From IMG/VR virus record IMGVR_UViG_3300045988_131726: a stretch of 64,000 nucleotides of DNA. The stretch is one strand, 5' to 3'. A program made the translations under genes and the position numbers. The notes below the pieces were generated by a model. That model was not told where the DNA came from and made no database searches. It worked only from the letters and a program-made list of their open reading frames with translations. The stretch is from a virus. Numbering within the stretch: position 1 is the first letter of the stretch; each line of letters opens with the position of its first letter. Below are positions 1,965 to 59,716 of the stretch, piece after piece.

Positions 1965-4900
1965 TTATCTTTGATTAAAGGTAAATGTATCATAAATATC
2001 AAAGAAGTCCTGAGCTGCATTAAGTCCTGGAGTTAGTCTCGATAAGTAATAAAAAGGTTGAGTTCTATCATTCTTATCTTCCTCCCACCATATTAATCCT
2101 TTGTAATCCTTTCCCATTACTAAGTCCCTAGTTTCATCAACAGTATTTCTAAAGAATCCCATTAAATTAGTTACGTAAGACATGACTGCCATAGGAGAGG
2201 AAATAATATCTGTAGCACTACTAATATCTACAAAGAACGATGCTTCAAGATATGCTCCATAGAGAGCTCTATATAAATTCTGTGTAGCAATATTCGTAGC
2301 CCATCCTGAAAAATCATCATCAGGCTCGTCAGGTACCATAGCTTTTGCTAGCATAGCCATTAGGAATAATCCTATAATAGATTGCAGTTCATAACCTAAT
2401 GCTTTTAACTGAGTTAACCTTAATTGGCAGAAATCTTCAAATGTGAAATCTTGTTTAGACTCATTTGGATGCTGATTAAAATATTCCTCATACTGCTTTC
2501 TAGCAGCTACTTCATTCTGTCCAATATTCTCGCCTGCTAAGTATCCTAAGATAGGCATAGACCTTAAGAGCATTCTACCAAATGCCTTAGATATTTCTAT
2601 ACCTCCTGTAGCAAACTCTCCCATCCCGACTCTAAACCTACCAACATCATATTCATCTATGATAGTATCCTTTTGAAGACCTTTAAATCTAGTTCTTAAT
2701 AATCCAGGAAGCCAGTTACGATACTGCATAATTAATGTACCTGCAATAGTAGTATTGGCAAGATACCTATCCTCTGCAGGCATAACACCTTTCACAGATG
2801 TGGCAGCACTTTGAGCGATAGTTCTAAATCTAATAATATCTTCTCTAGAAAGCTTATCAATAGTCATCTTACCATTCTCATCTACATGTAGTAAATCTGC
2901 AATAGGAATAGCCTTAGGATTTCTTCTTAAGCTGACTAACTTCTTCTTATTCTCATCATAACCCCAAGCATAGAGCATAGATGTTAATACCTTACGATCA
3001 ATATTAGAGTCTGTAGCTTCTAGTAGATAGAAAGCATTTTCTACATTAAATATTCTATTAGTCTTATTTGCAGAAAGTTCAAGAGCTCTTTTCTTCCAGA
3101 CATCTTCATTACCTATATGAAAGAATGATATTGCTCCATAATATTTAGTAGGATCCTGTTTCTTAAGTTCATTAGACTTCCTAGTAGACTCTTTAGTATA
3201 ATACTTACCTTCTATCTCAACCATTTTGAAGTTAAGCATTGTCTGAGCAAAATTTCGAAATCCCAAGATAGGTTTAAATCCTAATGTACTTAAAGAAGAC
3301 CATTGAACTACCTTTTTAGCTAACTTACCCCAACTATAAGTTTTACCCATGAAGGTGAAAGGTTTACCGGTCTCTTGAATAGACTTACCATATACATAGA
3401 GATCTATGAATTTCTCTAATACTGAGACATCATCTATGGATAAGCCTAGAGCTGTGCTTACCTTACCTACCCATTTATCCATATTAGGAATATTATCCTC
3501 AACAAAGACCTTAGCTTCATTGGTTTTAGCATGATAAAGCAGTAGCTGTGCATTAGCTTCAATTTCCTTCATGTGCTTATATGTATACACAGATTGGGCC
3601 ATAAGAAGTAACACTCTTGAGAGATCGTATGATTTATGTCTCAGACCTTTTTCCTCAGCTATCTTACGAAGTTCATTGTATCTTGCTGCTCGCCATTCCT
3701 CAGTATCCCTAGAAAGATTAGGATTAATAGCAGCTTCTGCTCTTGCAATATCTGCAGAAGTTAAGTTATCTTTAAGGGGATCTATAAAGAATAATGGTAC
3801 ATGTTTAATAGGATTACCAGCATAATCTAAGCCAGATGTTTCTTCCTTACTCTTATAAACTACATCTGATTCATCTCGGGTTTCTAAAGCTCCTAGAGTT
3901 ATAGACCTAAGATCTGACAAAGCTCCAATACCATTCTTAAAGATGGAGTCCATAAGATCATTTCTTACATTAGCAATAAACTTCTGACTAATCTTACGAC
4001 CTGTGATATTCTCAAATTCTACATTAAAGTTCACATACATATTATAGTAGTCTACCAGAGGTTTAATATCCTTAATCTTGTTGAATTCCTCACTATAATA
4101 ATTAGGATTCTCCACTCGGTATTTATCTCTGATAAACATATTATATTTATGAAAGACTGCTTTCTTATTATAACTTAAGTCATTAGCTTTACGCCATGCT
4201 AAGTATCTTCTCTCCTCACGTTCTTCTGCAGAGGTTCCTTTAGCATTCTCTATACGAGTTAGCCATTCAGCTTTAGCCTTATTAAAATCCTCTAATGCTT
4301 TACCTGTATACCTATAGCCACCCTTAGGATCACGCTCAATTTGATAGTTATTCAAAAAGAATGTTATTGAACGACTGCTATATGTCTGAGCTTTCTCTAA
4401 GTCTTTATAAAACTTACTAGAATACTTATTAATAAGTTTACCTGTTGAGGTATCTACGATCATATTAAAAGCATCCTGTAGAGTTTTATTATTAGCCTTT
4501 GCCCATTCTTGAAGAGCTTCTGTGTGAACTTTAATCTTCTCATGAGCTTTCTCAAGTTGTTCGTAGATATTTGCTTGTGCACCTTTCAAAAGTTTAGAGA
4601 ATGCTCTAAATATAGGATGTGCTATTTCACTTACTTTACTAAACCAACCTGCCCACCAGCCTACATGACTACCAGGCTGGGTAATATCTTCTCCTGTAGT
4701 AGCTAACAGCATATCTACAGGCTTCTGACTAAGGAGATTTCTAATAAATAATACCTCTCTCAAGGCTTTACCTAGCTGCATTCGGACATTAAGATCATCT
4801 TCCAAATTAATTAAATCTACTGACCCTTGAAAGAAATCTAGATATACATCAGATCTTTGCTTAAGCTCAAGTATCTCATTAGCTGTGAGAGATCCAGGTT

Positions 4901-7114: not shown

Positions 7115-9499
7115 TTATTCACACAATTTTTTACGTTCTTCTCCCGACTGAATAAATTCAGCACCTTCGTTAGTTTCAACTTTATTAGGCTCCTCTCCAT
7201 AAAAATCTTCTGGAGCAGAATTAGCCATCTCCTCCTCTATCTGAGCTTCTCTTATTATCTCAACTTCTTCCCAAGTATAAGGCTTATTAGGGCGAGATCT
7301 CTCTATATCAGAACTATCAAGATTAACTTCTCTAATCTTTCTAATCTCATTAATAAGCTTAACTAAGGGACTATCAGCTTCAAAATTATAAATCTGACGT
7401 TGGTGATTTTTAGCTACAGATTGAGAATCCAAGGGGAAGTTAACTCTTGAACCTTCAATATCTTGCTTCTTCTCGTTGTAATATCTTACAATAGGATAGA
7501 TCTTCTTAGTCTTATTACCATCTTCATCTGTAGCATATCTCTTCCCAAGAGGAAACTCAAGGGCCATTCTTAGATTAAACGGTAAGATACTATCATCATT
7601 GTAATTTGATAATTGCCAAGCATACAAGAAAGCTTCTCTCATAACACCATAACCTCTCTCTTGATAAGAATCTAGCATAGGTTTAATATAATCCCTATAC
7701 ATAGAGGCAGGAATAATGTCAATATAATTGAGAGGAGACATCTGAAGTCCTGATTGTAACAAGCAGAACTTCATTAAATCCATCGCAAATTCCTTATCTT
7801 GTAAATAAAGTTGTTCCCAAGCATAAGTTACAGCATTAGAAGCTAAAGGATCTTTATCTACGTAAGGTTTAATATTATGGATATCTTCTCTTACAGTATC
7901 TAAGATCGGTACTAATGCCTGGAACAAAGGATTATCTTTATATGCAGGCTCAGAACGAAGTCTAGCTAACTTCATAGGGACACTGTTATCACCTACCATA
8001 AGTCTCTTTCTCTCAGAAATTAAGGTCGTACCATTAGCATCTGGAGTATTGAGAATAATAGCTGTTAAAAAGTCATTCTTAAATTTATTAAGACTACTTA
8101 CAGCTTTATAATCAGGAGTAGGAGATGCTGTGTATCTACTGATCACGTCATCAAATAAACCATCTTGTCCATTAGTGAACTGCTCATCTCTAAGTAAGAG
8201 GAAGAGAGGTTTAAAGAAGTCTTTATATTCAGCAACAGCATTCTTATAACCTGCTATATAACCCTCATCGACTAGCTTCTCATAGTTAACTATATTCTCA
8301 CCTGCTGTAAGGCTTTTATGTAACTTCATGAGTAGTTCAGAGAGATTCTTACCACCATCTTTAGTATCATAGGTAGTACCTTGCATAGCATCTGCAACGT
8401 TACGCCCCCATTCAACATACCGAATAAAATCATCAAGAATCTGATTCTGATAAGTTAAATTCTGAGTAGTAATATAACTCTCAAGCTCATCAGCGGTGAA
8501 AACCTTAGCAGGAGCAGCTTCATCGATAGGAGGATATTTCATAGACAGATATGCTCGAATCTCATTCTTACTATATCGAGCCATAGCTGTGCCAGCCTTA
8601 ACCCTAGCTGATTTAGGAGAAACATAATTCTCCTGAGCAATCTGTGATTCATATTGTTGCTGTAGCTTTAAGTATTCACGAATGATAGGCTGGTTCATGA
8701 AGAGTGCTAGAGTATCAGGATGAACTCCTGCCATAGTAAGCATTGTAAGCGTTCCTAATGTTGCAGGAGTAGCTCCTAAATTCACTCCAAAAGGTGATTT
8801 AGCAGCATCCACAGCAGCACTAATCCACTGATTTAACAGCTCAGAAATAGGAATTTTCTTAGCACCAGCAGTAAACTTTCGTCCAAGCTGAACAACACCA
8901 TTTTCCTCATTGTGCTCAAAATTAACCTGAACTTTTTCTGCAGGTATCCCTAAGTCATACATGGAGGCAAATACATAGAATTTACCTGCATTAGCTGCAA
9001 TACCTACCTCTTTCTTACCAGCCATATAATTCTCAGCAACCTGTAGAACATATGTAGGATCTAGAATACTAGGAAGAGCCGCTTTAGATTTATAATACTC
9101 AGCCTCCATCTCATAAGTATCTCCAAAGACAGCTTTCATAGCTCTCTTGGCAGAAGCTTCCAAGATGTTGGTCTGAATAGGTGCTATAAAGTTAGAAGCA
9201 TTCTCAGCTATATGAGCAAGCTCTTTTTGAATCTGAGTAATACGATTCTCAATAGCTTTCTTGTGAAACTCTTCTTTAGATACCTTAGGAGTCTGCTCAG
9301 TATCTGCAAGCTCTTGTAGTAATTCACTGTTACCAAAGAATCCACTTAGAGCTTCAAGGATATCCTCTTTCTTCTCATCCTTAAAAGAGTTAACTAGTTC
9401 CTCATACTGTTCTTCCCAATGAGAATAATCTATGTACTTAAGCCGTCCCTTAACCTTATAATAATTAGGTACATATAAGTACATTTTATCAATATCATA
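7115..9499 (-). CDS. giant RNA polymerase, exon 2 (794 codons plus stop)
   Basis: The track ORF 7115..9502 starts at TTG, not ATG, and has no independent start context. After the predicted 3' splice site (omega-G at 9500) it reads YDIDKMYLYVP. This completes the universal RNAP metal-binding motif begun in exon 1. Confidence 0.8.
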   Translation of the reverse strand, partial: YDIDKMYLYVPNYYKVKGRLKYIDYSHWEEQYEELVNSFKDEKKEDILEALSGFFGNSELLQELADTEQTPKVSKEEFHKKAIENRITQIQKELAHIAENASNFIAPIQTNILEASAKRAMKAVFGDTYEMEAEYYKSKAALPSILDPTYVLQVAENYMAGKKEVGIAANAGKFYVFASMYDLGIPAEKVQVNFEHNEENGVVQLGRKFTAGAKKIPISELLNQWISAAVDAAKSPFGVNLGATPATLGTLTMLTMAGVHPDTLALFMNQPIIREYLKLQQQYESQIAQENYVSPKSARVKAGTAMARYSKNEIRAYLSMKYPPIDEAAPAKVFTADELESYITTQNLTYQNQILDDFIRYVEWGRNVADAMQGTTYDTKDGGKNLSELLMKLHKSLTAGENIVNYEKLVDEGYIAGYKNAVAEYKDFFKPLFLLLRDEQFTNGQDGLFDDVISRYTASPTPDYKAVSSLNKFKNDFLTAIILNTPDANGTTLISERKRLMVGDNSVPMKLARLRSEPAYKDNPLFQALVPILDTVREDIHNIKPYVDKDPLASNAVTYAWEQLYLQDKEFAMDLMKFCLLQSGLQMSPLNYIDIIPASMYRDYIKPMLDSYQERGYGVMREAFLYAWQLSNYNDDSILPFNLRMALEFPLGKRYATDEDGNKTKKIYPIVRYYNEKKQDIEGSRVNFPLDSQSVAKNHQRQIYNFEADSPLVKLINEIRKIREVNLDSSDIERSRPNKPYTWEEVEIIREAQIEEEMANSAPEDFYGEEPNKVETNEGAEFIQSGEERKKLCE

Positions 9500-10412
9500 C
9501 AATAATCTCTTATACTTTCATATAAGTTTAGACTATATCTTCACTACTAATAGTAGTGTTCTGCATTTCAGGCTCTAAAGCCCTACCCAAAGATTCTTTA
9601 TCATATAATGATCTAGATCTTTGACTTAAGTCGTATGTAATTTTATGTATCATACATGGAACTTCTGATACAAATGGTTTGACAATTTCAAGAAATTTAA
9701 TACCTTCTTTAGTACCACAGCATAAAGAATAAGTACCTCTACCTTCTGATATAGGATAGAAAGAAATATTCCATTCTTCCTTAAAGAAATTTATTACATT
9801 CTGAATGGTTTCTTTATCCTCACATAGGGATATTCTTATATAGAATCCATGGCATTTACCTTTAGTAATTCGATAATTGATACATCCATCATCCATATAC
9901 CAGATAGCAATACCTCTTGCATCTAACCTATTTAGAAGACGTCTATTACCAAGATACTTCTTAGGCTTATAAAATATCCTCCTAAGCAATTTAATGAAAG
10001 TTGTTATTCCTAATTGAGTATATAAAACTTTTTGACCAGTATTATATCCGCATGTACTAACATATTCATGTATTCCATTATTACGAATACCCGCATTATT
10101 AAGTTGCTTAACTTTCCACTCTAAATAATCTCTCTGTGCCTCAGAATGAGATAATTTAAATACATTATTATTACTAATAGTTCCATCTCCTAGTAATAAT
10201 GCAATTAATAAATTTCTTGAATCTTTATTTAACTTAGTTTTCATACGCTTTGTTATCCATTAAGGAAACGTTATTTAAGTATTAGTCGTTGAGCCTTCCC
10301 CATATGGGGCTTGGCTGCGGATTGCCCAATTCTAAACATTGTTACACTTCGGTAGTTTAGACTCTAAGGGGGTCCCCGCAATTAACAGAATTTTACTCGA
10401 ACCATGATATTA
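9500..10412 (-). mobile_element. group I self-splicing intron (913 nt) carrying a LAGLIDADG homing endonuclease ORF
   Basis: P1: exon ctcggaU (10419..10413) pairs with gttcgag (10402..10396), with a terminal U.G wobble. P10: exon-2 tatgatatt (9499..9491) pairs with aatatcatg (10411..10403), 9 bp. P7-like pair acgacta (approx 10283..10289) / tagtc (within 9530..9545). A P9 hairpin cttata-tgaaag-tataag follows, and the intron ends in G at 9500. Confidence 0.8.
9528..10244 (-). CDS. LAGLIDADG homing endonuclease (double-motif, intron-encoded)
   Basis: 238 aa with two LAGLIDADG-type motifs (LLIALLLGDGTI and IAIWYMDDGC). It lies entirely inside the intron. Its last codons (EDIV-stop) are the P7 3' strand of the ribozyme core. 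Confidence 0.85.
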   Translation of the reverse strand: MKTKLNKDSRNLLIALLLGDGTISNNNVFKLSHSEAQRDYLEWKVKQLNNAGIRNNGIHEYVSTCGYNTGQKVLYTQLGITTFIKLLRRIFYKPKKYLGNRRLLNRLDARGIAIWYMDDGCINYRITKGKCHGFYIRISLCEDKETIQNVINFFKEEWNISFYPISEGRGTYSLCCGTKEGIKFLEIVKPFVSEVPCMIHKITYDLSQRSRSLYDKESLGRALEPEMQNTTISSEDIV

Positions 10413-13400
10413 ATCCGAGCCTGCTTTAGCAACAATCTCTGTAGGCAGAACTATAATATCACCAGCAGCTTCAGGGAGGAAATCTTTAACAACAATAGTT
10501 TCTATTGAGCTAAGTCCCTGTGTAGGGATACGGAATCCTATAAGCTGTAGCAACTCAGGAGGTACTTTACCTACCTTTGTAATACCCTTAAACGGTGAGG
10601 GAAGATATACTTCCATAGATGTAATCTTAGGCTTACCATCTACATATTTTACTACGAAGTCTAAGTCCGAAGATTTATACTTACCTTCATTATATGTACG
10701 GCTTGCCTTAGTTTCCCACATGGTCGAAGGCACCTGGAATGCTGCTGTACCATGACGTTTCTGAGAAGTAGTCATACTTGCAGCTCTGCTCATAAGGATG
10801 CTCTCAATCTTCTCACGTGTAGGAAGAATATCTATATTAGTAGTACCATCATCAAGATTATCTAAGAGTTCTATAGCAGTAATGTAATTATCCGCTAATC
10901 CCCTTTCAATAGCTTCTCGGCGTAGAGAATTAACAAGACTTACAATACCCTCTTCAGAAATCTTCCATCCCTTCTTAGTTGCTACAAGACCTAACTCTTT
11001 AACAAGTTGATCTCTACCTATAGCAATACGTTGATTATTCAGACTAATATACTCCTCAGCTAAAGCTTTAACTTTAGGAGCATTCTCTCCAAAGTGTTCA
11101 CTGATCTCACCCGCATCAAAGAGACCATTAAGAATCTGTACCATCATCTGAGTACCAGTAACTACATCATGGTGTTTATGTTCACCAGTGTCTACTTGAA
11201 TACCCCAATATTCCCAATAAGTATCTTGAGTAAGAAGATCTAAAGGCCCAGTATAATTACCTTCAGTATCTACCAAGAAGTTACCTTCTTTATCGTAGAA
11301 GTCATTAAAAGGATGCTCTGTATTTGTAACTAATACACCTTCCTCATTAGTAACCGAATTAGTCTTAGTAGTTACACCTTTATTAGCTGAATAGTGTACG
11401 GCTACACTAACCTGATTCTTAATCATTAGTTCGTGAAGCTTAGAGAGGTTAGTATCTCCTAAAGCCTTCAGGACAGAAGGTATTAGAGGCATCAATGAGA
11501 GCTTATAGAAAGATGGTTTAAATCCTTCAACATTAGCTAAAGGACCAAAGTGCTGAGGTTTTAAGGAATTAAATACTTGAGAACCCCAGCTGCCACGAGT
11601 TAAAGGAGATTTATTACCATCAAAGTCTACAAATACTCTCTCCTCAACAGGAACTCCTGCTCTTTCTTGTACTTCCCATTGATAAAGCTTTTCAGAATCA
11701 AGATTCCAATCCCCTACTCTAACTTTGAATTCTCGGTAAGCATCTAAAGAAATCATTCCAAAACCGTCACCCTCAGTCATATCTGCATAAGGAGCACTAT
11801 TAAGACCCAACTTATCCGCATTCTTAATAAGAGCTTCTGTCATCATATCCTCAAAAGACTTACTCTTATCAGAGTGCTCATAAGCTTTAAGAACATCATT
11901 GCGAAGTGCCTTATATTTATTATTCTCAGCATCTACAATCTCAGCAATCTGATATAACTGCTTAGAATAGCTAGGAACATCTGAGAATACAGCAGTTCTA
12001 AGTATAGGCTTACCACTTTCATCAGTAAGATTCTCAGCACCATCCATACGCTTAAAGTCACGTGCTATAGTAGTATTAATACCATCAGATGTTAAGCAGG
12101 TTTTCTTAGAACCCATAGCACCATTGTGGCGTTTGAATTCATCACCTAAAGATTTATAGAATATATTATCTCCATATAATATCTTACTTTGCTCAATATT
12201 ACCGATAGCATAATTTACTACTGCATGGCGTATCCAGCTTATGACGTTAGATTTAGAGTACTGATTAGTAGTAGGATTAGTACTTAGCTTTAGGGACATG
12301 TTCAATACTTGATCGTTAGCTAGTTCTTTAAGACCTCCTAGGTCTATTAGCTTATCATAAGCATTGCTAGTCCAAGTATTAATCATCCTCTCTATACGAG
12401 TAGATAACACATCTCTACCTATAGTATTAAGAACTCTGTCTGCAAAATCATTAGGAGATTCGGCAGTATCTACTAAGAATTCTTTAATCTCATTAGGAGT
12501 TAACAAACTTTCAATTACTGTACCCTTAGTATAGTTTTTGTTAAAATTTGTAAACGCTCTATCCTTGATATGAGATCTGGCAATTTCATCCCATAAGTAG
12601 CCTCTGAAAATATCTATAACTTCTCCACGAGTAGTATTTACATTAATCCAAGTATCTCCATGATCCAGGAATCTCTCTTGACCATTATCGGCAGGTCTCA
12701 TAATATTATCCCTACCTTCCATAGTCATATTAAGGACTGTAGAAAGCTTATCTATAAGCTTCATATCCTTATAATCCGTTCCTGTACCATTAGAATTCTC
12801 TCTATTACCTTCATGTATCAAGATTGATAATTTAGGAGTTCTCCTATCTACAAGAGCTCTATTAAGTAACAAAGAGTGCGTTACGTAAATATTATGAGAA
12901 GGATCTAGATGAGGCATCTCTGAATATAGCTTCTCAGGACTATCTATAACTCTATTAATCTTATTAATTGTCTGATTAATATAACCAGGCTTTTGAAGAT
13001 CATAAATTCTTTCATCTCCAAGTGAAATGTGAGAATTTTCTAGAGTTTCTATACCAAGATCTGATTGTATATCTAAGAAAGCATCTAAGTTCTCATTCTC
13101 TCCATCACGGTTCTCATTTACAATAGGAGTCTTTAAAGATCCCTTGAGTATCTGATAGTAAACCTGCCCTATCTTATCCAAAAATCTCTTAGTATGCAAA
13201 GCTTTTTGAAGAGTCTCAGGATTATTGATATCATAGGTTATTCCTAAGATACGTAAGAACTCTTCGGCATTATCAGCAGTAGGAATACGAGGAAAAGCTT
13301 TCTTAATAGCATCTGCATTATATTGCCAAACTTTATATTTATTGCGACTATAAAATTTGATAATATCAGGGTTACCTTCTAGCAACCACTTAGATAACTG

Positions 13401-16400
13401 AGCTCTCCATGCTCCTGCAATACGAGCTCTATGACCTACAGTAGAAGCATTAAAGATAGTGTACTGCCCATTAGCTTTAGTAATACCTATAAGATAATTA
13501 TTCTTGTTATTATTAAATGCTTGCATGAACTGTACAACCTGAAGCATATCTGAAGCAGACCAGGAATCAACCTTATCTAACTTGAGCCAAGAAGGAACTA
13601 CTTGAGTAATTATCTCTCCTTCGGGAGTTCTAAGTGAAACAACCTCATCTCGAATGAGAGGATAAATTGCAGGATACTCTTCAGCAACTTGAGATAATCT
13701 CTTCTGTAGCTCTTGCATAGAAATGCTAGTAGGGAGATTAGCTAACTTATTTGCTAAGATATTAAAGACCTTACCAAAGGGTTCTACCTCAGGCATTCCT
13801 AAGCTATTCTTATAAGGTATAGCTTCCCGAGTCTTAAAATCATAATGTTTCTTAGGTAAGGTACTAAGAAGCAGCTTTATGATCTTATTAGAGTTCATCT
13901 TACTACTTACAGTAATAGATTCCGCAAATAAAGCTGCAGAGTCTCGACCTTGATTACTCTCACCACCTGAGATCTCAGAGGCGGATTCTTGATAGTCTTC
14001 AGACGTGTTTAACTCTAATTTATATTGTGCTAGCCGCTCTTGCTGATGTAAAGCTTTGATTCCCTTAGGGTCATTCCAAGTTTCTAGAACTTTCTGTAAT
14101 TTCTCAAGATCAGAGAGATATTGCTCCATTAAATTAGGATCTGCGAAAGCTATAGAGGATAGGATTTCATTGTATCGACCTACAAACTCATTATGAGCAA
14201 ACTCATAAGCCTCAGATACAATCTTAGCATTTTCTGACTGCAGTATATCAATTAGATTACCATTCTCCTTAAAGTACTGTAGAAACCAATAGTGTAAGCT
14301 ATTTACAGCGTCTGCTGTAGTAATAGCATCTAAACCTGGGATAACCTTATAGTGAGGAGATGTTGCCTTTAATGTAAGATAGTCATTCATAAGAAAACCT
14401 TTATTACGAACTCTCTCTACAATAGATTGTATACTTTGAGTCCATTCCCTATTGGGTTTACCAAGATGCCGAATGTTATTATATAACCTTGTTAATTGAT
14501 ACTTGATATACTTAAAGATCTTCTTAATAAAGTTATTATCTTCATCCTCAGTTACCATAAAGTCTGCAAAAGCTTCAGCTAGAACCTCTTCAGCTAATTC
14601 TTCACTACCTAATTCAGGATATAAAGGTTTTAATGAATCAAAATTACTTTTATACTCATCATTATTAAGAGCTTCCCTTACTAGGTTAGCTTTCTCATCG
14701 GCTGTAAGTAAGCAGTCCAAAATAACGTGAAATGCCTCATGATATACAGACTCTGCACCAGTACCTTGATATACAGTAACTACACTATCCTCAAATTTAC
14801 CAACTACATTCTTAGCAATAGCAGACTTAACAATCTTGAAGTCAATATCAGGAAACTTCTTCTTAAACCATTCTCCAGCTTTATCTAATTCCTCATTCGC
14901 AGAATTACTCATTTGCTCATATGTCCTACGGAATTTTGTAACTGTAGAAATACGAACACTATCATTAGACTTCTGTGACGTAGCGTTTAGATTGTTAGCC
15001 ATATCTAGGGCTCTCTGAAGTTGAGCTCTAACCTTAGGATCTGTAGTGCTTTCAAGCTGCCTCTGAAGTGCTGCTATAGCAGGATTACTAGACTGTGTAG
15101 TAGGTTCTGAAACAGGAGATTTCTTATCTTCTACAAGAGTAAGCTTAGCATTAAATTGAGTAGGATCCTTAACCCCCATCCTGTTAGCAAGGTATGCTTG
15201 AGCAGCATTCGCAACATCTGCTAAAGTAGCTCCCTCTCTACCAGCATATTGGTTAAGCTGATCTGCAACAACTATAGGAAAAGCATTCTCCTGATCAGAG
15301 CTAACAATACTCCTACCATCATATTGAGCTTCAAAGTCAAACCTATTAATATTACCATTCGCAGGATTAGTAACCTCAAGTGTCATCTTTACAGGAGTAC
15401 CGGATCTAATAGTATCAATAACACTTGCTAAAGACTTCTCTTTAGAAACCTCTTCTTTGGCCTCTGAGACTTCATCAGAAGTAACAGTTTCTACATTCAG
15501 AGGATCATATGTCACATATCGCTCAGCATGCGCGTAAGGACTATTAGGATCTACTACAAAGTCTACTAGGTTTTCTCTAACAAAAGTATGGTAATTTTGG
15601 TATTTCTTAGCTCCTAATGTACCATCTTTATTAATCTTAGTAGGGAAGTAATAAGGATCTTTACTTGCAGGATTAATCTTTGAATAACGAGGGTTATAGA
15701 AAGCTTTACTTAAGAAGTTATTAACCTCTGTAAGAAACTCTTCGTTAATAACATAGTTACCATTTTCATCTCTTACAGCCGCATCTATCTCTTTATCCCC
15801 AATATTCCACCTTACAGTATTCTGACCATTCTCATCCTTAATATTATATAAAGTACGAGCAGGATCACCATGACTATTATACCTAAGTAAATCTCGTAGA
15901 ATTCCAAAAAAGTCGTAATGTATAAATTCTTTACCACTCCTAAGAGTATACTTATCACTACTTACAAAAGTCTTTCCTTTAATAGATTTAGCAATATAAT
16001 GCCTAAATAAATCTACTAAGAACTGCCTAGTTCCTGCTTGAATGGGTACTGAGTTAGCCCTATAGAAATTATTATTCGTAGCATCATGGATAGCCATTGT
16101 TCCTGCAGGAACAGTAAAGGTTTGGCCATTCTCTGTAATAATTCTACCAATATTTGAAATATAAACCGTTAAAGTATTTATATCCATATTAGCAGGTAAA
16201 CTCTCAGCTAAAGGCTTAAGCTGTGCAGGCTTCTTAATAACATCATGTTTGTACTTATCATCAATAATACCAGCACTTGTTCCTTGAATAACAACAGGTA
16301 CACTTACACCATCTTGTAGATGTTCCCAAACATCTCTAATATAAATAGCCCTGTAGTAATCAAAGCTCTTCTGAGTACCATAGTACTTACCATCAGCATC

Positions 16401-19334
16401 GGTTGTAGGATCTGCTACAGTAGTATAGACTGCCTTATTAAGATCAAGTTCTTTTCCAATAGAGTTCCCATCGGCATCTATGTAATTTCCGTCGTGATCT
16501 GTGAGAATTAATCTACCCGCAGTCTTTCCTTCATATTTGAAAGGTACTATAATACCTCTATATTGAGAAGCATCATGTTTATCAAGGAAGTCAAACCATC
16601 GTATTTGATCCACATTACTATTCTCACGGCTAGCTATATCAGAGCCTTTAGAACCCCGCCAATAATTTTCTGCAGATCTCTTAGGAGGATCCCACAAAGC
16701 ATCATTAGCTTCGGGAGTATCAAAGCTATCAGAACGAACAAATTCTATCTCCTGAGCATCGTTATTCTCAGGATTAGCATCCTTAATTTCTTCTCCGGAT
16801 GCTTTAATAATCCTATCTTGAGCCCGATGATATAAATTATCAATTTCTTCAATAGCTTCTTCACTAAGACTTGAGTCATTCTTATATCGCTCTCTCCAAA
16901 TAGCTAGATCATCCAGACTCTTAAGTTCATCTACTTCCTTACGAAGCTCCTTACGTTTAGCAGGAGTAAAAAATTTGACTTCAGGGGTGGTAGTCTCGGG
17001 AGTAATAGCTTCAGAAGCCTCAGGAGTTTCTTCCTGATAACTCTCTAAATCCTGAGCTGTAACAGGTCGTTCATCTCCTTCCTCATTAGTAAGTATAGGC
17101 ATACTATAAGTACCGAGCTCATCATCATAGCCACGAAGGAAATAATTATCTCCATCCTTAACTACTTGAGCTCTATTAGTAAGTATAGGTTGATTATTAT
17201 CATCATACTGTACTAAAGGCTTATTTGCCTTAGATTCAACTGCCTGCTTTTCAGCTTCAGCAGCTATTCTTTGCAGTCTCTCAACTTCGGTCTCAAGCCA
17301 CTTCTCTTGATACTCTTTCTTAGTAATCTCCTTATATTCCTTATCAACATCATCTAAAGCTTTCTTAACATCTCGATACTGCTTAATACGGTCAGTAAGA
17401 GTTTTATAAGCTTCAGGAGCTTCAGATTGTGCTAAGGTTTTTGCATTAGCTTCGAAGTTAAGATCTTTATCTAGGCTCACATTATAAACAGGAGATTTTG
17501 CACTTAAGGATTCATTTAAATCTGTAAGTTTATTCTGGATATCCCTATATAAATCTTTACTCCAAGTTTGAAGAGTATTATGTCGAATACGATTGTCAAA
17601 GATCTCTTGACTATTAGGATTATGTGAAGCTAAGATATACTCATTCTCAGATTCATTAATGTATTCTTTTAACTTCTGAGCTTGCTCTCTTTCCTCAGGA
17701 GTTCTACTAGTATCATTAATAATATCTTCTGTAGATCTCTCTAATGCTGTAATAGTACCATTCTGAATAGATTCAGTAATGAGATCTGCAGCCTCCTTAT
17801 TCCACATAGCATCCGCAGTTACATCGTCTCCCCTAGAGATAGCTTCAGCTTTTAATGCCTCAGCTTGAACAATATTATTAAGCTTATTATTAATTCCCTT
17901 AATAAATTCTTGTTGCTTAACATATGATTGATATTCCTCCTCACGACGTTTACGACCTAGAATATCTCCAGAAGCTATATTAGCAACAACTCTAGATACA
18001 GCTCTTTGTCCAGGGCCTGTAACTGCTCCCATAAGACCTTCTACGATCGCCTGCTTTGAAGTACCAAAAGCAAGAGCTCTATCCCAGAAAGTATCACCTA
18101 GCTTCTCATCTTCCTCAGTTAAAGTACCAGCAGCCTTACGAACTTGGTATTCCCCCTCCATCTGAAGAATATTCTGTCCAATTTCTTCGGCACCTTCCTT
18201 AGCTCCCTGAATAAGTATATTATCTGCAGAAAGCTTACCTAGGTTCTTAATAGCCTTAAGTTTCTCCTTAGGATTAGTAAGAAGTGCTTGCCTAAAAGCT
18301 CCTTTGCTCTTAACAAGACCATGAAGACCTATGGCATCTGTTAGCATGAATATTCTATTGTTACGGACGAATTCAGCCTGTTCTTTGCCTATTCTAGCTT
18401 GTACCTCAGTGTCGTTATTAAACTCATCTTCTGCTAACTTACGAGCATTCTCAATACTTAAAGGAATAGGAGCATCTTTGAACTGCTCATAGTATTCCCG
18501 AGCTTTGGATTCTATGTACTGCTGCTTAGCATTCTCTCCAAGCTCAATAGCCATCATCTGGCCTTCAGCATAGTTAGTAATAGTACCAGCAGCAACATCT
18601 TTAGCTATTTCCCCAAGGGAATTTGCAAGTACCTTGGTACCTGCAGAAGCATTCATCTTAGCAAGTCCTCTAGCAGCTAAAGATCCTGCTCTACTAAGTT
18701 TAACAGCCGCACCAATACCTTTAGATACAAGACCTCCTGGGATAGCAAAGCCTACTACCGAGTCAATCATACCCTTTAGAGTACTGAACTTAAAGAACTG
18801 GCCTAAAGCACTATCACTCTCAGTCTCATATATAGGCATAGTTTCATTAAGACCTTCTTTAAATTGTCTCATAGCTTTAGACAACCAATTATCACGGTCA
18901 TTATCAAGCTTATTCCATGTATTGTAATGACCCTCAAGGTCAAGGATATAACCAATGTCCTCAAGAGCTGTAGCAAGACCACTAATAGCACCACTAACTA
19001 TAGCATTGGTAGCTTTTAAAAATCCAGACTGTTCATTAGCTCTAAAGGCATTAAGGTCTCGCATTTGATTAAGCTCAGTAATACCCTCATCATACGAAGA
19101 GGGATTACCATTAGCAGCTTGTAAATATTCTTGACCAATATTAGACTCATCCCCAAATATTGATCGAGAGAAGTCTACATCATGCTGAGCCTGTTCAGTG
19201 AGAAACTCATTCATCCCATAGGACTTGGGGGCTAATCTATTAACCCCCGGTAGTCCTTGGATATTATCGTACTGAGCTTTCTCCTGACTTATCTGGAATA
19301 GTGCATCATTAAGTTTCTTTAAATTCTCATCCAT
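10413..19334 (-). CDS. giant RNA polymerase, exon 1 (2974 codons) with N-terminal zincin-like region
   Basis: The C-terminal end FRIPTQGLSSIETI...IVLPTEIVAKAGSD aligns by eye with bacterial beta-prime NRAPTLHRLGIQAF...IQLHPLVCAAYNAD(FDGD). The ORF stops at TAA immediately after the 5' splice site. An HExxH motif (HEAFH) lies at 14727..14741. Confidence 0.8.
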
Positions 19335-37658: not shown

Positions 37659-38657
37659 TTATTTCTTAGAAGCTTTGATCTTAGCCTCAAGCATTAACTT
37701 ATACTCTTGATTCTTGACAGCATTGATATACCTTGCAGCATTAGTAATATTCGGATCATCCATACCTTCACAAAGCGGAGTATTGTCAGCCTTGTAGTAA
37801 AGATCACCACGCTTCTTAATAAGTCCTGCACTAATAGCATCCTTAATCATTACCTTGGTCTCAAGGTAGGGATCTTGTAGAATCTGTACAAAGAGCTTAG
37901 GATTGCTCTGCATATTCTTAAATGCTTGAGCTTGTAGCCAATCAAGAGTACTTGTATCAGATACAGGCTTACCTTCAAGAGTCTCAACTACTAGACGTAG
38001 TACAGGTTTATTCTCAAGGAATTTACCAAGCTCGAAGGATGCCTGCATAGCTACATTCATTTCCTTATTGAGAGTCTTAACCTCTTCTCCCTCTCTGATA
38101 AGCACATACCTATAGGTTGCTTTAGGACTGGTCTTAAGAGTATCAAGACTAGGAGCAATAGTATCTGAATTAGCTAGCAGAATCTTATATTTAATATAAC
38201 CATCAGGGGTAGAAAGATCCAGAATTGTATCCATCTTCCCAAGTCTTACAATAGCATTGTCAGACTCCCAATAGTTATCTTCCTTACGATAGATAGATAG
38301 TGCATTATCTTCAAGACCCATAGCCATTTCTAAGAACTTTTTCTCAGCTTTAGTGAGAGCATTCTTATATGAACCCGACATCAGAAGCGGTAGCGTATAG
38401 ATTTTAACTGCGGTTTCAGCCATACCTCCATAGAGAGCGTGAGTAGGCTTGTCAATATTACCAGTAGGTTTAAGAATACACCGTACAATAACTTTCTCAT
38501 TCTTGAGACAGTTTACTAACGGCTCTTCCTCTACAATGGTAGCTACACCTTTCTTATCTACCTTAGGACCCTTTACAGGTTTAGGTACTTCAACTTTTAC
38601 CTCATCAACTGAGGTGTCAACATCAATATCACCAATATTGCTAAAATTCTTATCCAT
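37659..38657 (-). CDS. hypothetical structural protein (332 aa)
   Basis: ATG start 62 nt after the MCP exon 3 stop, just past the terminator hairpin. Confidence 0.55.
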   Translation of the reverse strand: MDKNFSNIGDIDVDTSVDEVKVEVPKPVKGPKVDKKGVATIVEEEPLVNCLKNEKVIVRCILKPTGNIDKPTHALYGGMAETAVKIYTLPLLMSGSYKNALTKAEKKFLEMAMGLEDNALSIYRKEDNYWESDNAIVRLGKMDTILDLSTPDGYIKYKILLANSDTIAPSLDTLKTSPKATYRYVLIREGEEVKTLNKEMNVAMQASFELGKFLENKPVLRLVVETLEGKPVSDTSTLDWLQAQAFKNMQSNPKLFVQILQDPYLETKVMIKDAISAGLIKKRGDLYYKADNTPLCEGMDDPNITNAARYINAVKNQEYKLMLEAKIKASKK

Positions 38658-38680: not shown

Positions 38681-38710
38681 AGGTAAGTGGGATTTGACCC
38701 CCACCTACCT
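38681..38710 (-). terminator. intrinsic terminator/attenuator hairpin after the major capsid gene
   Basis: 11-bp stem aggtaggtggg / cccacttacct (one G.U) with an 8-nt loop. It starts 10 nt after the exon 3 stop and is followed on the minus strand by tcatttaaatt. Confidence 0.6.
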
Positions 38711-38719
38711 AATAATTTA

Positions 38720-38868
38720 TTACTCCGTAAGAATATTCGGAATCAGGCTCATGGTACGAGTCGGATCCAGGATGAAGACACCCAGAGTAGCCATCTTGTG
38801 GATCTGAGCCGAGTCTTCGGGATACGACATGTACGGGTTGTTCATGCCACCCGTGAACGGGTTTCTCA
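38720..38868 (-). CDS. major capsid protein, exon 3 (149 nt, not in the ORF track)
   Basis: It reads (L)RNPFTGGMNNPYMSYPEDSAQIHKMATLGVFILDPTRTMSLIPNILTE-stop in the frame fixed by the P1/P10-defined junction. There is no start codon, hence no ORF call. GC-rich codon usage matches the other MCP exons. Confidence 0.75.
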
Positions 38869-39217
38869 CATTTAAACGTTACTGATATACCGTTACCGTA
38901 TATCATCTACAACTTTCGTTGTAGTTCAGACTATATCTTCACTGACAAATGTCAGGCAAGGCATTTCGGAGCTACTTAGCCCCTACTCCCAAACGGGATA
39001 GTCGTTGAACCTTTAATTATAAATATCATTATAATTACTTGGCTGCTGGTTATCCAATCTTTTCTATTTTCAAACTTTCACGCTTAGTATTGCTACTTAC
39101 GTTGTAGTTAGGAAAGCTCTAAGGAACTTCCAGCAATTAACCTTGTTTTAAAGCCTCTCTTCTGTTCCTGGGTCAGGCTTGTGGGAACTGAGAAATGTGT
39201 AAAGGCTTACGCCGTTA
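38869..39217 (-). ncRNA. ORF-less group I intron (349 nt) in the major capsid gene
   Basis: P1: exon tggggaU (39224..39218) pairs with gttccca (39188..39182), with a terminal U.G. P10: exon-3 tgaga (38868..38864) pairs with tctca (39193..39189). The core shares gcagccaag, aaggYtcaacgacta and a 16-nt identical agtgaagatatagtct (38943..38928) with the polymerase intron. A P9 hairpin ctacaac-gaaa-gttgtag is present, and omega-G is at 38869. Confidence 0.8.
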
Positions 39218-40223
39218 ATCCCCACATATAACCCCGATACTCTTCCTTACCACGAACCTTAGCTAGCTGAATATTAGGCTCCTCAGTAGTACCAATACAC
39301 ATAATATCATAACGGTACGACTCTGCAACACCGCCATTCGGGTGCATGATCTTGTTACGTACCTGATCGTCGTAGAGAGGATTAACATCAATCTGAATGG
39401 TTAGACCATTAGGAGCTTTGTACTCTACAAACTGGAAACCTGCACTCAGGGCATTCTCATGAAGCTTACTTGAAGTCTTTGAAATAATAGCAGGATTAGC
39501 TGCATTGCCACCAAGATACTGGAATACAGTCCATCCAGATACTACATCAAGAACTGCCTTATGGAACTGTACAGCACCACGAGAACCAGTCTCAATAATA
39601 AAGGTACGATCTGAGTAGTCAAGCTTCGACTCTGACAGCTCGAAGAGAGCATCCTCAAGAGTCTTCAGACTAAACTTAGTGTAATAACGAGTATTACCTA
39701 CAGACATCTGAGCACGGATACCATCACCCATCTTAATGACATTACCGGACTTACCAAAGTTCAGATACTCACCGTTCTTATTACGGTTCGAGCGGCCAAA
39801 CATTATAATGTTCGACTTATATTCTGAGAAGGTTTCCTCCAGCTTATAGTCTACATGGTGAATCCATGAATTTGCTACTTGCTTATTACCAGCCTTATCT
39901 ACAAAAGGTATACCAATGGCCAGCTTCTTATCAAGAATATTTCCAGGAACCTTAGTCTGAATACGAATGTGTGACCACTCATTACGCATAGCAGTAGAGC
40001 TAGTATAACGAACATCGCCTACTTCCAGCGACATCGTATCCTCAACAGGAGCATATTCCCAGCTAAACCGCTTACCAGCAACAAGCTGACTTACGGGCAT
40101 ACCATCAAGGACGCCTCCCATAAGTTCTACAGTATAAACTGCATTCGAACCTTCAAGTCTCGGCTGACCCAGAATACGCAGGGGATAAACCTCATTAAGT
40201 TCTCCTACAATTACCTCACCATC
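39218..40223 (-). CDS. major capsid protein, exon 2
   Basis: The track ORF 39207..40226 begins at TTG with no start context. Large GC-enriched ORF following the scaffold-like gene. Its 3' end is set by the P1 pairing at 39218. Its 5' end is set by analogy (omega-G in aaattg at 40224). Confidence 0.7.
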
Positions 40224-40543
40224 CAATTTGTTATCCTAGAGGCTCTTTATCCTCTAGCTCTATAGATTTACTATCTCTATAGTTCGGAGTACATTTTAAT
40301 CCTATTAACATATAGGATCCGGACACTCTTGGAAGAATTATATTCTACGCTTTCTACTTAAATACCTAGCATAGGTTCATCTTCTACTCTCTACACTACC
40401 TATTAATATTATTTAATAGGTTAGCTCGGTATTAGCCAATCTTAATGTAGGACTAAGATAGAGGCCTTCACCGATTTTGCCCAATTTTCAGTATACATTA
40501 CTGTATAAAGCGCCAATTTTAGTAGCTAAGCTACTCTGGGTCT
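40224..40543 (-). ncRNA. putative group I-like intron (about 305-320 nt) in the major capsid gene; 5' boundary uncertain
   Basis: A 300-nt non-coding hairpin-rich gap lies between two same-strand MCP ORFs. It shares attgggcaa and gaaggc with the polymerase intron. The 3' architecture is analogous: ctatagag, P9 hairpin ctagagg-ataaagag-cctctag, then gataacaaattg ending in G. A weak P1 (cgcU/ggcg, 40514..40511) places the 5' splice site after 40544. The alternative site is after 40529. Confidence 0.5.
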
Positions 40544-40906
40544 AGCGAACCAGTCTTCGGGGAAAACAACCTTGAAGGGCTGTCCATTGGCACCAGCAAA
40601 AGTCTCAGTTTCCTCATTATTCTCAAGAACCTGATCACTCATGTCACGAGCCTCAATGATCGGAATATTACGACGCGAGCTGCCAATAACTTCCCATGTA
40701 TACTCATCATCAGTCTCAAAGTACTTAACAGGGAATCTCTGGAGATAACTATCGAGACTCTTGCCACGATGCTGAGCCAGAAGCTGTACCATAATATTAG
40801 TAGCTTTCTGAGGCGCACGACCAAAAATAGCTCCGATGTGGTTATCTCGGGTTAAGCCTTTCCACGAAGTGAAGGCTTTCATTTGAAATTTACCTAATAG
40901 TTGCAT
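40544..40906 (-). CDS. major capsid protein, exon 1 (about 121 codons)
   Basis: ATG ORF 15 nt after the scaffold-like gene. Read-through ends at TAG 40528..40526. The best-guess junction gives ...FPEDWFA|DGEVIVGE..., for a 505-aa three-exon product. Confidence 0.6.
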
Positions 40907-59627: not shown

Positions 59628-59645
59628 AAAGTTAAAATTAATTAG

Positions 59646-59716
59646 CTGGGATAGAAGGAATCGAACCTTCTCCGAGTGGTTAATGACCACTTACTCTACC
59701 TTCGAGCTATATCCCA
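59646..59716 (-). tRNA. tRNA gene with a non-canonical anticodon loop (nominal anticodon AUU)
   Basis: The cloverleaf can be read. Acceptor TGGGATA/TATCCCA; D arm GCTC-GAAGGTA-GAGT; anticodon stem AGTGG/CCACT with loop TCATTAA; T arm GAAGG-TTCGATT-CCTTC; discriminator G; no encoded CCA. Position 33 is C rather than U. Confidence 0.7.

Follow-up and report, generated by a model that had tools for sequence, protein, structure and literature searches.

A predicted ORF-less group I intron hides the last exon of the major capsid protein gene in a crAss-like phage

Where does the capsid gene of this phage end? The window, i.e. the whole stretch of 64,000 nucleotides that was analyzed (IMG/VR virus record IMGVR_UViG_3300045988_131726), contains on its minus strand an open reading frame (ORF) of 339 amino acids (39207..40226) with the C-terminal end ...EEYRGYMWGLTA-TAA (...YMWGLTA-TAA). 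A gap of 549 nt separates its stop from the next ATG and called gene at 38657, and the ENA gene calls on a contig with the same architecture (L105) leave precisely this stretch uncalled. The original prediction placed a group I intron and a hidden third exon of the capsid gene here; its coordinates for the end of the ORF and for the stretch without a called gene were confirmed. Our analysis indicates that this crAss-like gut phage (Steigviridae, near cr108_1) very probably has a capsid gene made up of three exons and two ORF-less group I introns. The positions of all features are collected in Table 1; in the text, positions on the minus strand are mostly read from the higher to the lower number.

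Table 1. Features of the capsid gene and of intron 2 in the window.
Feature	Position	Strand	Description
Capsid gene exon 1	40544..40906	-	121 codons; ATG at 40906; ends ...WFA, U at 40544
Intron 1	40224..40543	-	320 nt, ORF-less, group I-like; preceding exon ends in U, intron ends in G (40224)
Capsid gene exon 2	39218..40223	-	1006 nt; ends ...TGG GGA T
P1 5' strand	39218..39224	-	UGGGGAU, last 7 nt of exon 2; splice-site U at 39218
Intron 2	38869..39217	-	349 nt, ORF-less group I intron (predicted); main subject
In-frame TAA	39207..39209	-	three codons inside intron 2; closes the 339-aa ORF of the unspliced RNA
Internal guide UCUCA-GUUCCCA	39182..39193	-	39193..39189 forms P10, 39188..39182 forms P1
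P5 extension of the ORF-less form	39063..39111	-	intron nt 107-155; HNH ORF at this place in long-form relatives
P7 5' strand	38999..39005	-	A-(C bulge)-GACUA
P7 3' strand	38928..38933	-	UAGUCU
Omega-G (terminal G of the intron)	38869	-	kept in 19/19 complete related copies
Capsid gene exon 3	38720..38868	-	2 nt of a Leu codon + 48 codons + TAA stop (38722..38720)
Hairpin	38681..38710	-	12 pairs; starts 9 nt past the capsid stop codon

The closest deposited relative, uncultured phage cr108_1 (MT774385; Steigviridae, Asinivirinae, Pipoluvirus), has an uninterrupted capsid gene for 499 amino acids. Against the window, the DNA of this CDS splits into three aligned blocks: positions 1-345 with 40906..40544 (exon 1), positions 346-1352 with 40223..39217 (exon 2; 323 of 336 residues identical in tblastn) and positions 1352-1499 with 38868..38721 (exon 3; 47 of 49 residues identical). 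The three blocks define intron 1 as 40543..40224 and intron 2 as 39217..38869. The edges of intron 2 are ambiguous by one base in this alignment; a T is present on both sides of the junction, and CDS position 1352 aligns to 39217 as well as to 38868. In group I introns the exon ends in a U, which forms a U-G wobble pair, and the intron ends in a G, which is required by the chemistry. Among the alignment choices only 39217..38869 combines an exon ending in U with an intron ending in G, and the ambiguity was settled by this rule.

Joining exons 1, 2 and 3 gives 1518 nt in frame and a predicted product of 505 amino acids, which reads ...YMWGLRNPFTGG... and has the C-terminal part ...YMWGLRNPFTGGMNNPYMSYPEDSAQIHKMATLGVFILDPTRTMSLIPNILTE up to the stop. 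Removal of intron 2 gives the same frame as in the intron-free cr108_1, in gp32 of ΦcrAss001 (PDB 7QOF) and in the best 80 of 288 IMG/VR relatives. The cr108_1 protein ends with ...GYMWGLRNPFTGGMNNPYMSYPEDSAQIHKMATLGVFILDPTRTMSIIPNILTE-stop (...GYMWGLRNPFTGG...IIPNILTE-stop). Residues 4-503 of the spliced product were aligned to residues 5-502 of 7QOF with an E value of 1.2e-210, and both junctions are free of gaps: gp32 reads ...YQWGIRNPFTGQKGNPYMSF... across the position of the exon 2/3 junction, exon 3 aligns to its C-terminus, and the alignment also spans the exon 1/2 junction FPEDWFA/DGEVIVG (here and below a slash marks the junction). The Pfam family Crass_capsid (PF23898) matches residues 2-502 of the 505 residues with 714 bits (cut-off 27) and covers positions 2-495 of the 496 in the profile. 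A comparison with the C-termini of other crAss-like capsid proteins had been proposed as a check on the third exon; in the intron-free proteins the C-terminus coincides with exon 3 precisely from the predicted junction onward. The alignments with cr108_1 and 7QOF thus bear out the claim that the junction restores the frame of a 505-aa product. In the predicted mRNA, position 39218 is joined to 38868 (...GGTTATATGTGGGGAT/TGAGAAACCCGTTCACGGG...). The full-length protein would have a mass of ~56 kDa and contain the peptides GYMWGLR and NPFTGGMNNPYMSYPEDSAQIHK; the 339-aa fragment ending in ...WGLTA corresponds to ~38 kDa.

Four side details of the original prediction have to be modified at this end of the gene. 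The annotated capsid protein is truncated, as was foreseen, but it ends in two wrong residues (T and A) and not in three; the Leu at the junction is correct by coincidence, being encoded by TTA in the unspliced and by TTG in the spliced RNA. Exon 3 was thought to be invisible to ORF finders for lack of a start codon. The ENA gene calls do leave it uncalled, but an in-frame GTG, composed of the last G of intron 2 and the first two bases of exon 3, opens a 49-aa ORF (38720..38869), and this exact peptide is present in NCBI nr (DAH01387.1, 'MAG TPA: major capsid protein'). The codon usage of exon 3 is not GC-rich in the same way as that of the other exons; exon 3 is richer, with a GC content of 51% (44% in exon 1 and 43% in exon 2) and a GC3 of 67% versus 41% and 37%. 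A strong terminator had been placed 10 nt behind exon 3. A stable hairpin is indeed found 9 nt after the stop (38710..38681; -20.1 kcal/mol, z -3.15), but it lacks a U tract and for that reason was not called in the terminator scan, so that an intrinsic terminator is not supported. It is possibly a transcript-end or stabilising structure.

The identity of intron 2 was examined with Rfam. The family RF00028 (Intron_gpI), which had been suggested for a cmsearch, matches at 39240..38907 over the full length of the model (positions 1-253 of 253) with 81.5 bits, well over the gathering cut-off of 50 (E 3.7e-19). The Rfam search found no family other than group I at this locus. Together with the boundaries from cr108_1, which agree within one base, and with the covariation described below, this match confirms the 349-nt group I intron at 39217..38869. 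Intron 2 combines a score above the gathering cut-off with a U-G pair in P1, an omega-G, a P3-P7 core, a P10 helix and a restored reading frame. As claimed, it is free of ORFs; the longest stop-free stretch has 41 codons. The copy in the window contains no homing endonuclease of the kind that defines a mobile intron and therefore cannot move on its own.

Intron_gpI also has a weak match in intron 1 (40533..40260; 23.4 bits, E 0.0036), between the 126-aa and the 339-aa fragments of the capsid protein. Bajarodcaudo virus 1 and cr111_1 have inserts homologous to intron 1 with endonuclease ORFs, and a homologous insert is also present in cr128_1. A further match to the model in the window lies at 10444..10164 (53.6 bits).

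The two helices on which the original prediction was based can be read directly from the sequence. In P1, UGGGGAU (39224..39218) pairs with GUUCCCA (39188..39182) in 7 pairs, of which one is an internal G-U and the last is the U-G at the splice site (U39218-G39188). Directly 5' of the P1 guide, UCUCA (39193..39189) forms the five Watson-Crick pairs of P10 with UGAGA (38868..38864), which lies directly after G38869. A P10 guide next to the P1 guide is the canonical arrangement of group I introns. The guide for P1 and P10 is weak evidence when it is taken alone, since a guide with 12 of 12 pairs (G-U allowed) is found somewhere in 189 of 20,000 shuffled introns (0.9%). The helices P7.1 (38998..38987) and P7.2 (38983..38968) are located between P7 and the 3' strand of P3, and we take their presence to place intron 2 in subgroup IA. 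In P7, the pair G39003-C38929 is expected to be the guanosine-binding pair. Rfam's own placement of P1 and P2 set exon bases against intron bases and left several of them mismatched; it was replaced by the P1 that adjoins P10 and covaries.

Next we consider whether this fold is conserved. The helices P1, P3-P9, P7.1, P7.2, P9.1 and P10 were drawn on the window sequence and mapped to an alignment of 13 distinct copies, from which the endonuclease ORFs had been cut out. Standard pairs are formed in 99.8% of the 1051 pair cells, compared with 34-44% when the partners are slid by 1-3 columns. Changes on both sides occur in 29 of the 81 pairs, and the observed covariation score was not reached in any of 500 shuffles. 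Compensatory changes are seen in P6, P7, P8 and P9, and all six pairs of P7.2 covary. The P1 pair A39219-U39187 is replaced by G-C in 3 of the 13 distinct sequences, which belong to the cr128_1 clade; the synonymous change from GGA to GGG in the exon is matched here by a change from U to C in the guide. Similarly, the outer A-U pair of P7, which lies next to the bulge and to the G-C pair that never varies, is G-C in three sequences, with all cells paired. The changes in P1 and P7 come from one clade (cr128_1-like) and hence probably reflect a single event per pair. P10 is identical in all 13 distinct sequences, and P3 and most of P1 are also invariant, so that covariation neither supports nor contradicts the model in these helices. 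P2 was omitted from the pair count because MAFFT misregistered its 3' strand; checked sequence by sequence, the hairpin is kept with five different stem sequences and a conserved loop. The P5 extension forms a hairpin capped by a GNRA loop, and compensatory changes in it are seen when the window is compared with two of the contigs (L004 and L012). At the level of sequence, the edges of intron 2, its fold and the protein that its removal restores are established.

On this basis the following mechanism can be proposed. The late transcript would fold into a ribozyme of the subgroup IA type with the helices P1 to P10, including P7.1, P7.2 and P9.1, where P10 is made with exon 3. Pairing of the GUUCCCA guide with the end of exon 2 (UGGGGAU) would generate P1, in which the splice site falls on the U-G wobble, and an external guanosine in P7 would attack after U39218. 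Through P10, the UCUCA guide would keep the first bases of exon 3 (UGAGA) in place. G38869 would then take the guanosine-binding site, and exon 2 would be joined through its free 3'-OH to U38868. The ligated mRNA would give rise to the full capsid protein of 505 amino acids, and the unspliced RNA to the 339-aa or a shorter fragment, with a stop three codons into the intron. Splicing and catalysis of intron 2, as well as their efficiency, are what we infer from the established chemistry of group I introns.

The same intron is present at the same codon in other genomes, namely in cr128_1, in bajarodcaudo virus 1 and in 20 IMG/VR contigs. The latter were found with a 26-nt pattern from the 5' end of the intron, and in all 20 the insertion is at WGL/RNP. 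The copies are either 349-377 nt long and without an ORF, or 834-846 nt long and with an HNH homing endonuclease; three are cut by the ends of their contigs. Every intron-bearing allele has U/UGAGA at the junction, and the exon edges keep P1 and P10 in 23 of 23 carriers. The exact 339-aa fragment was found on 10 independent contigs of 50-200 kb. Neither cr108_1 nor the intron-free set, i.e. the best-scoring 80 of 288 IMG/VR relatives of the capsid gene, contains the intron 2 stretch, and all 80 are uninterrupted at this site. The sequence of the empty site is TGGGGATTGAGAAACC. Ten of these best 80 of 288 relatives have the intron-free allele TGGGGATTGAGAAA and the others use different synonymous codons. 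Among the intron-free relatives L025 comes closest; its flanking exons are ~93% identical and its site is empty.

A comparison of closely related alleles shows that one and the same exon 3 is combined with different forms of the intron. Three contigs (L005, L009 and L017) carry an ORF-less intron identical to that of the window, but gave no match to the window in an exact 300-mer test. In a fourth (L008) the exons are identical to those of the window and the intron is 834 nt long. Nucleotides 1-106 of the window intron are identical in the two, and nucleotides 156-349 are 98.5% identical; the stretch between them differs. This contig and L106 encode a 184-aa protein with HNH_3 and NUMOD4 in the P5 loop.

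Over the whole ribozyme the two deposited carriers, cr128_1 and bajarodcaudo virus 1, are 76-81% identical to the window, and they share with it the insertion codon (WG L/R NP), the guide, P10 and the core. The copy in cr128_1 (MT774392 / NC_055885, Mahlunavirus) has 844 nt with an ORF, labeled in RefSeq as an HNH endonuclease, in the P5 loop, while the copy in the window has 349 nt and no ORF. The capsid gene of cr128_1 is recorded as three CDS (gp_25442, gp_25440 and gp_25438), with exon 3 entered as a 'major capsid protein' CDS of its own. The copy in bajarodcaudo virus 1 (PQ006092) is ORF-less, 351 nt long and 81% identical, and lies at the same codon; exon 3 is unannotated in this genome. 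An intron feature is annotated in none of the records of deposited relatives that we examined.

The fact that the fragments appear singly in the records (the three CDS of cr128_1; DAH01387.1) raises the question of whether the capsid could be made without splicing, as separate polypeptides of 126, 339 and 49 amino acids that assemble without covalent joining, with intron 2 as a dead relic. A possible start codon (ATG, TTG and GTG) on each fragment is in agreement with this view. However, the ribozyme core is intact and has been kept by compensatory changes, which a dead intron would not retain, and the exon edges pair in P1 and P10 in all 23 carriers. Furthermore, it is the splice sites that incidentally create the TTG and GTG 'starts' (the GTG begins with the terminal G of the intron), and the breaks occur inside conserved segments that are continuous in gp32 of ΦcrAss001. 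Production of separate polypeptides is therefore very improbable. We consider it slightly less probable still that intron 2 is shifted by one base to 39216..38868, which would result in the same mRNA. The T on both sides and the 1-nt overlap in the cr108_1 alignment allow such a shift, but the intron would then end in U and the splice site would be off the U-G pair of P1.

The initial look of the locus, a truncated ORF, would also fit an artefact of assembly or a chimera, and equally a group II intron, an intein, a frameshift or recoding of a stop codon. The same architecture is present in independent assemblies from ENA, NCBI and IMG/VR, which speaks against an artefact. An intein must be in frame and coding, but the insert is non-coding; with 349 nt it is no simple frameshift either, and the sole Rfam match at the locus is to group I. 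These explanations, which have practically no probability left, were rejected on the basis of the Rfam match, the cr108_1 allele and the independent contigs. The preferred reading remains that of a group I intron at 39217..38869.

Group I introns are known to split capsid genes of crAss-like phages into ORF fragments, which complicates their annotation (Yutin et al. 2021, PMC7886860). In that study the introns were detected through their endonuclease domains in the Delta and Zeta groups; the Alpha-Gamma group is described as being without such insertions, and introns of the Beta group (Steigviridae) are not discussed there. A 2023 review repeats the report on capsid-gene introns in Delta and Zeta. 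The phage in the window differs from these cases in that it is a Beta-group relative and in that both of its capsid-gene introns are ORF-less; an approach based on endonuclease domains would hence not find them. Thus crAss-like capsid-gene group I introns are already published, and intron 2 is an ORF-less one in the Beta group (Steigviridae).

Intron 2 is an ordinary phage group I intron, at a site which is also occupied in deposited genomes. With the classical phage introns of subgroup IA (T4 td/nrdB/nrdD, Staphylococcus phage Twort nrdE and Bacillus phage AR9/PBS1) it shares P7.1/P7.2 and an early in-frame stop past the 5' splice site, as well as peripheral loops that may or may not hold an endonuclease ORF, while the host gene and the phage lineage are different. 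With blastn, 120-170 nt of its conserved P3-P7 core align at 70-81% identity to introns from Twort nrdE, from AR9/PBS1 and from phages of Staphylococcus and Lactococcus. An intron in a major capsid gene has also been described in mycobacteriophage LittleE, and there RT-PCR and sequencing of the protein proved that it is spliced (Pope et al. 2013, PMC3706429). The LittleE intron resembles intron 2 in that it resides in a capsid gene, was recognised via an intron-free relative, follows an exon ending in U and itself ends in G. It differs in its length of 819 bp, its HNH gene and its unrelated sequence.

The value of the finding lies mainly in annotation. In automatic gene calls the capsid protein of these phages is recorded as fragments of 126 and 339 amino acids, and its last 48 residues are usually dropped. 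Public protein clusters contain many truncated capsid entries of this kind, which distort phylogenies, family profiles and searches in virome proteomics. Since ORF-less introns escape screens for endonuclease domains such as that of PMC7886860, the intron load of the Beta group (Steigviridae) is probably underestimated.

The ORF-less form has a conserved P5 hairpin of its own, and empty, ORF-less and HNH-bearing alleles coexist at the site, so that this form could represent a lineage which has been maintained and which guards the site against the endonuclease. That it is a stable, streamlined ribozyme lineage, and not the decayed remnant of an endonuclease-bearing form, seems to us rather unlikely. 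If it were true, an occupied site could protect the capsid gene from the HNH endonuclease of co-infecting relatives. A parallel for such a role of introns in phage-phage competition may be seen in a study on an intron endonuclease of ΦPA3 (PMC11620839). The ORF-less intron would then be a player in the competition between phages in the human gut.

The boundary between exons 1 and 2 of the capsid gene is occupied by a 320-nt intron without an ORF (intron 1). A U at 40544 closes exon 1, and a G at 40224 closes the intron. A candidate P1 helix of 6 bp, drawn by eye, is formed by CGCU/AG and UUGGCG. The Rfam score for this intron is only 23.4 bits (E 0.0036). Homologues were found in bajarodcaudo virus 1 and in cr111_1, where the inserts carry endonuclease ORFs, as well as in cr128_1. 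In the deposited genome of bajarodcaudo virus 1 (PQ006092) the capsid gene appears as several CDS fragments; a CDS for a 'hypothetical protein' is annotated inside its homologue of intron 2 (3501..3851), and the C-terminal capsid exon, located at about 3851..3991, is without annotation. A third group I intron, which contains a LAGLIDADG endonuclease ORF, breaks a giant gene in the window into ORFs of 2974 aa (19334..10410) and 795 aa (9502..7115).

Additional features of the window.
Feature	Position	Strand	Evidence
Intron 1, ORF-less, 320 nt, capsid exon 1/exon 2 boundary	40224..40543	-	
Third group I intron	~9503..10444 (extent approximate)	-	Rfam 53.6 bits at 10444..10164
LAGLIDADG_2 endonuclease ORF, 238 aa, within third group I intron	9528..10244	-	Pfam E 1.7e-18
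tRNA Asn, anticodon ATT	59645..59716	-	ARAGORN; Rfam tRNA 56.3 bits

The hexamer AAGCCU is present twice on the minus strand of intron 2, once in a small invariant hairpin in the P1 loop (39201..39206) and once in the 5' strand of P2 (39175..39180). Either of them could pair with AGGCUU (39151..39156). This alternative pairing is restricted to the lineage of the window because P2 is different in the other copies of the intron; hence it is probably a coincidence.

The third-position GC content of exon 3 (38720..38868) is 67% versus 37-41% in exons 1 and 2 (within 39218..40906). The exon 3 segment is 88.5% identical to the intron-free allele of cr108_1, the closest deposited relative. The high value may be a trait of the 3' end of the gene or a consequence of the intron.

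The anticodon loop of the tRNA, in our own reading, is UCAUUAA; the anticodon is preceded by C instead of U, and the wobble position is occupied by A. Each of these two features is unusual. Judged from the loop sequence, a shift of one base in this reading would give the anticodon UUA, which would be able to read the UAA stop codon.
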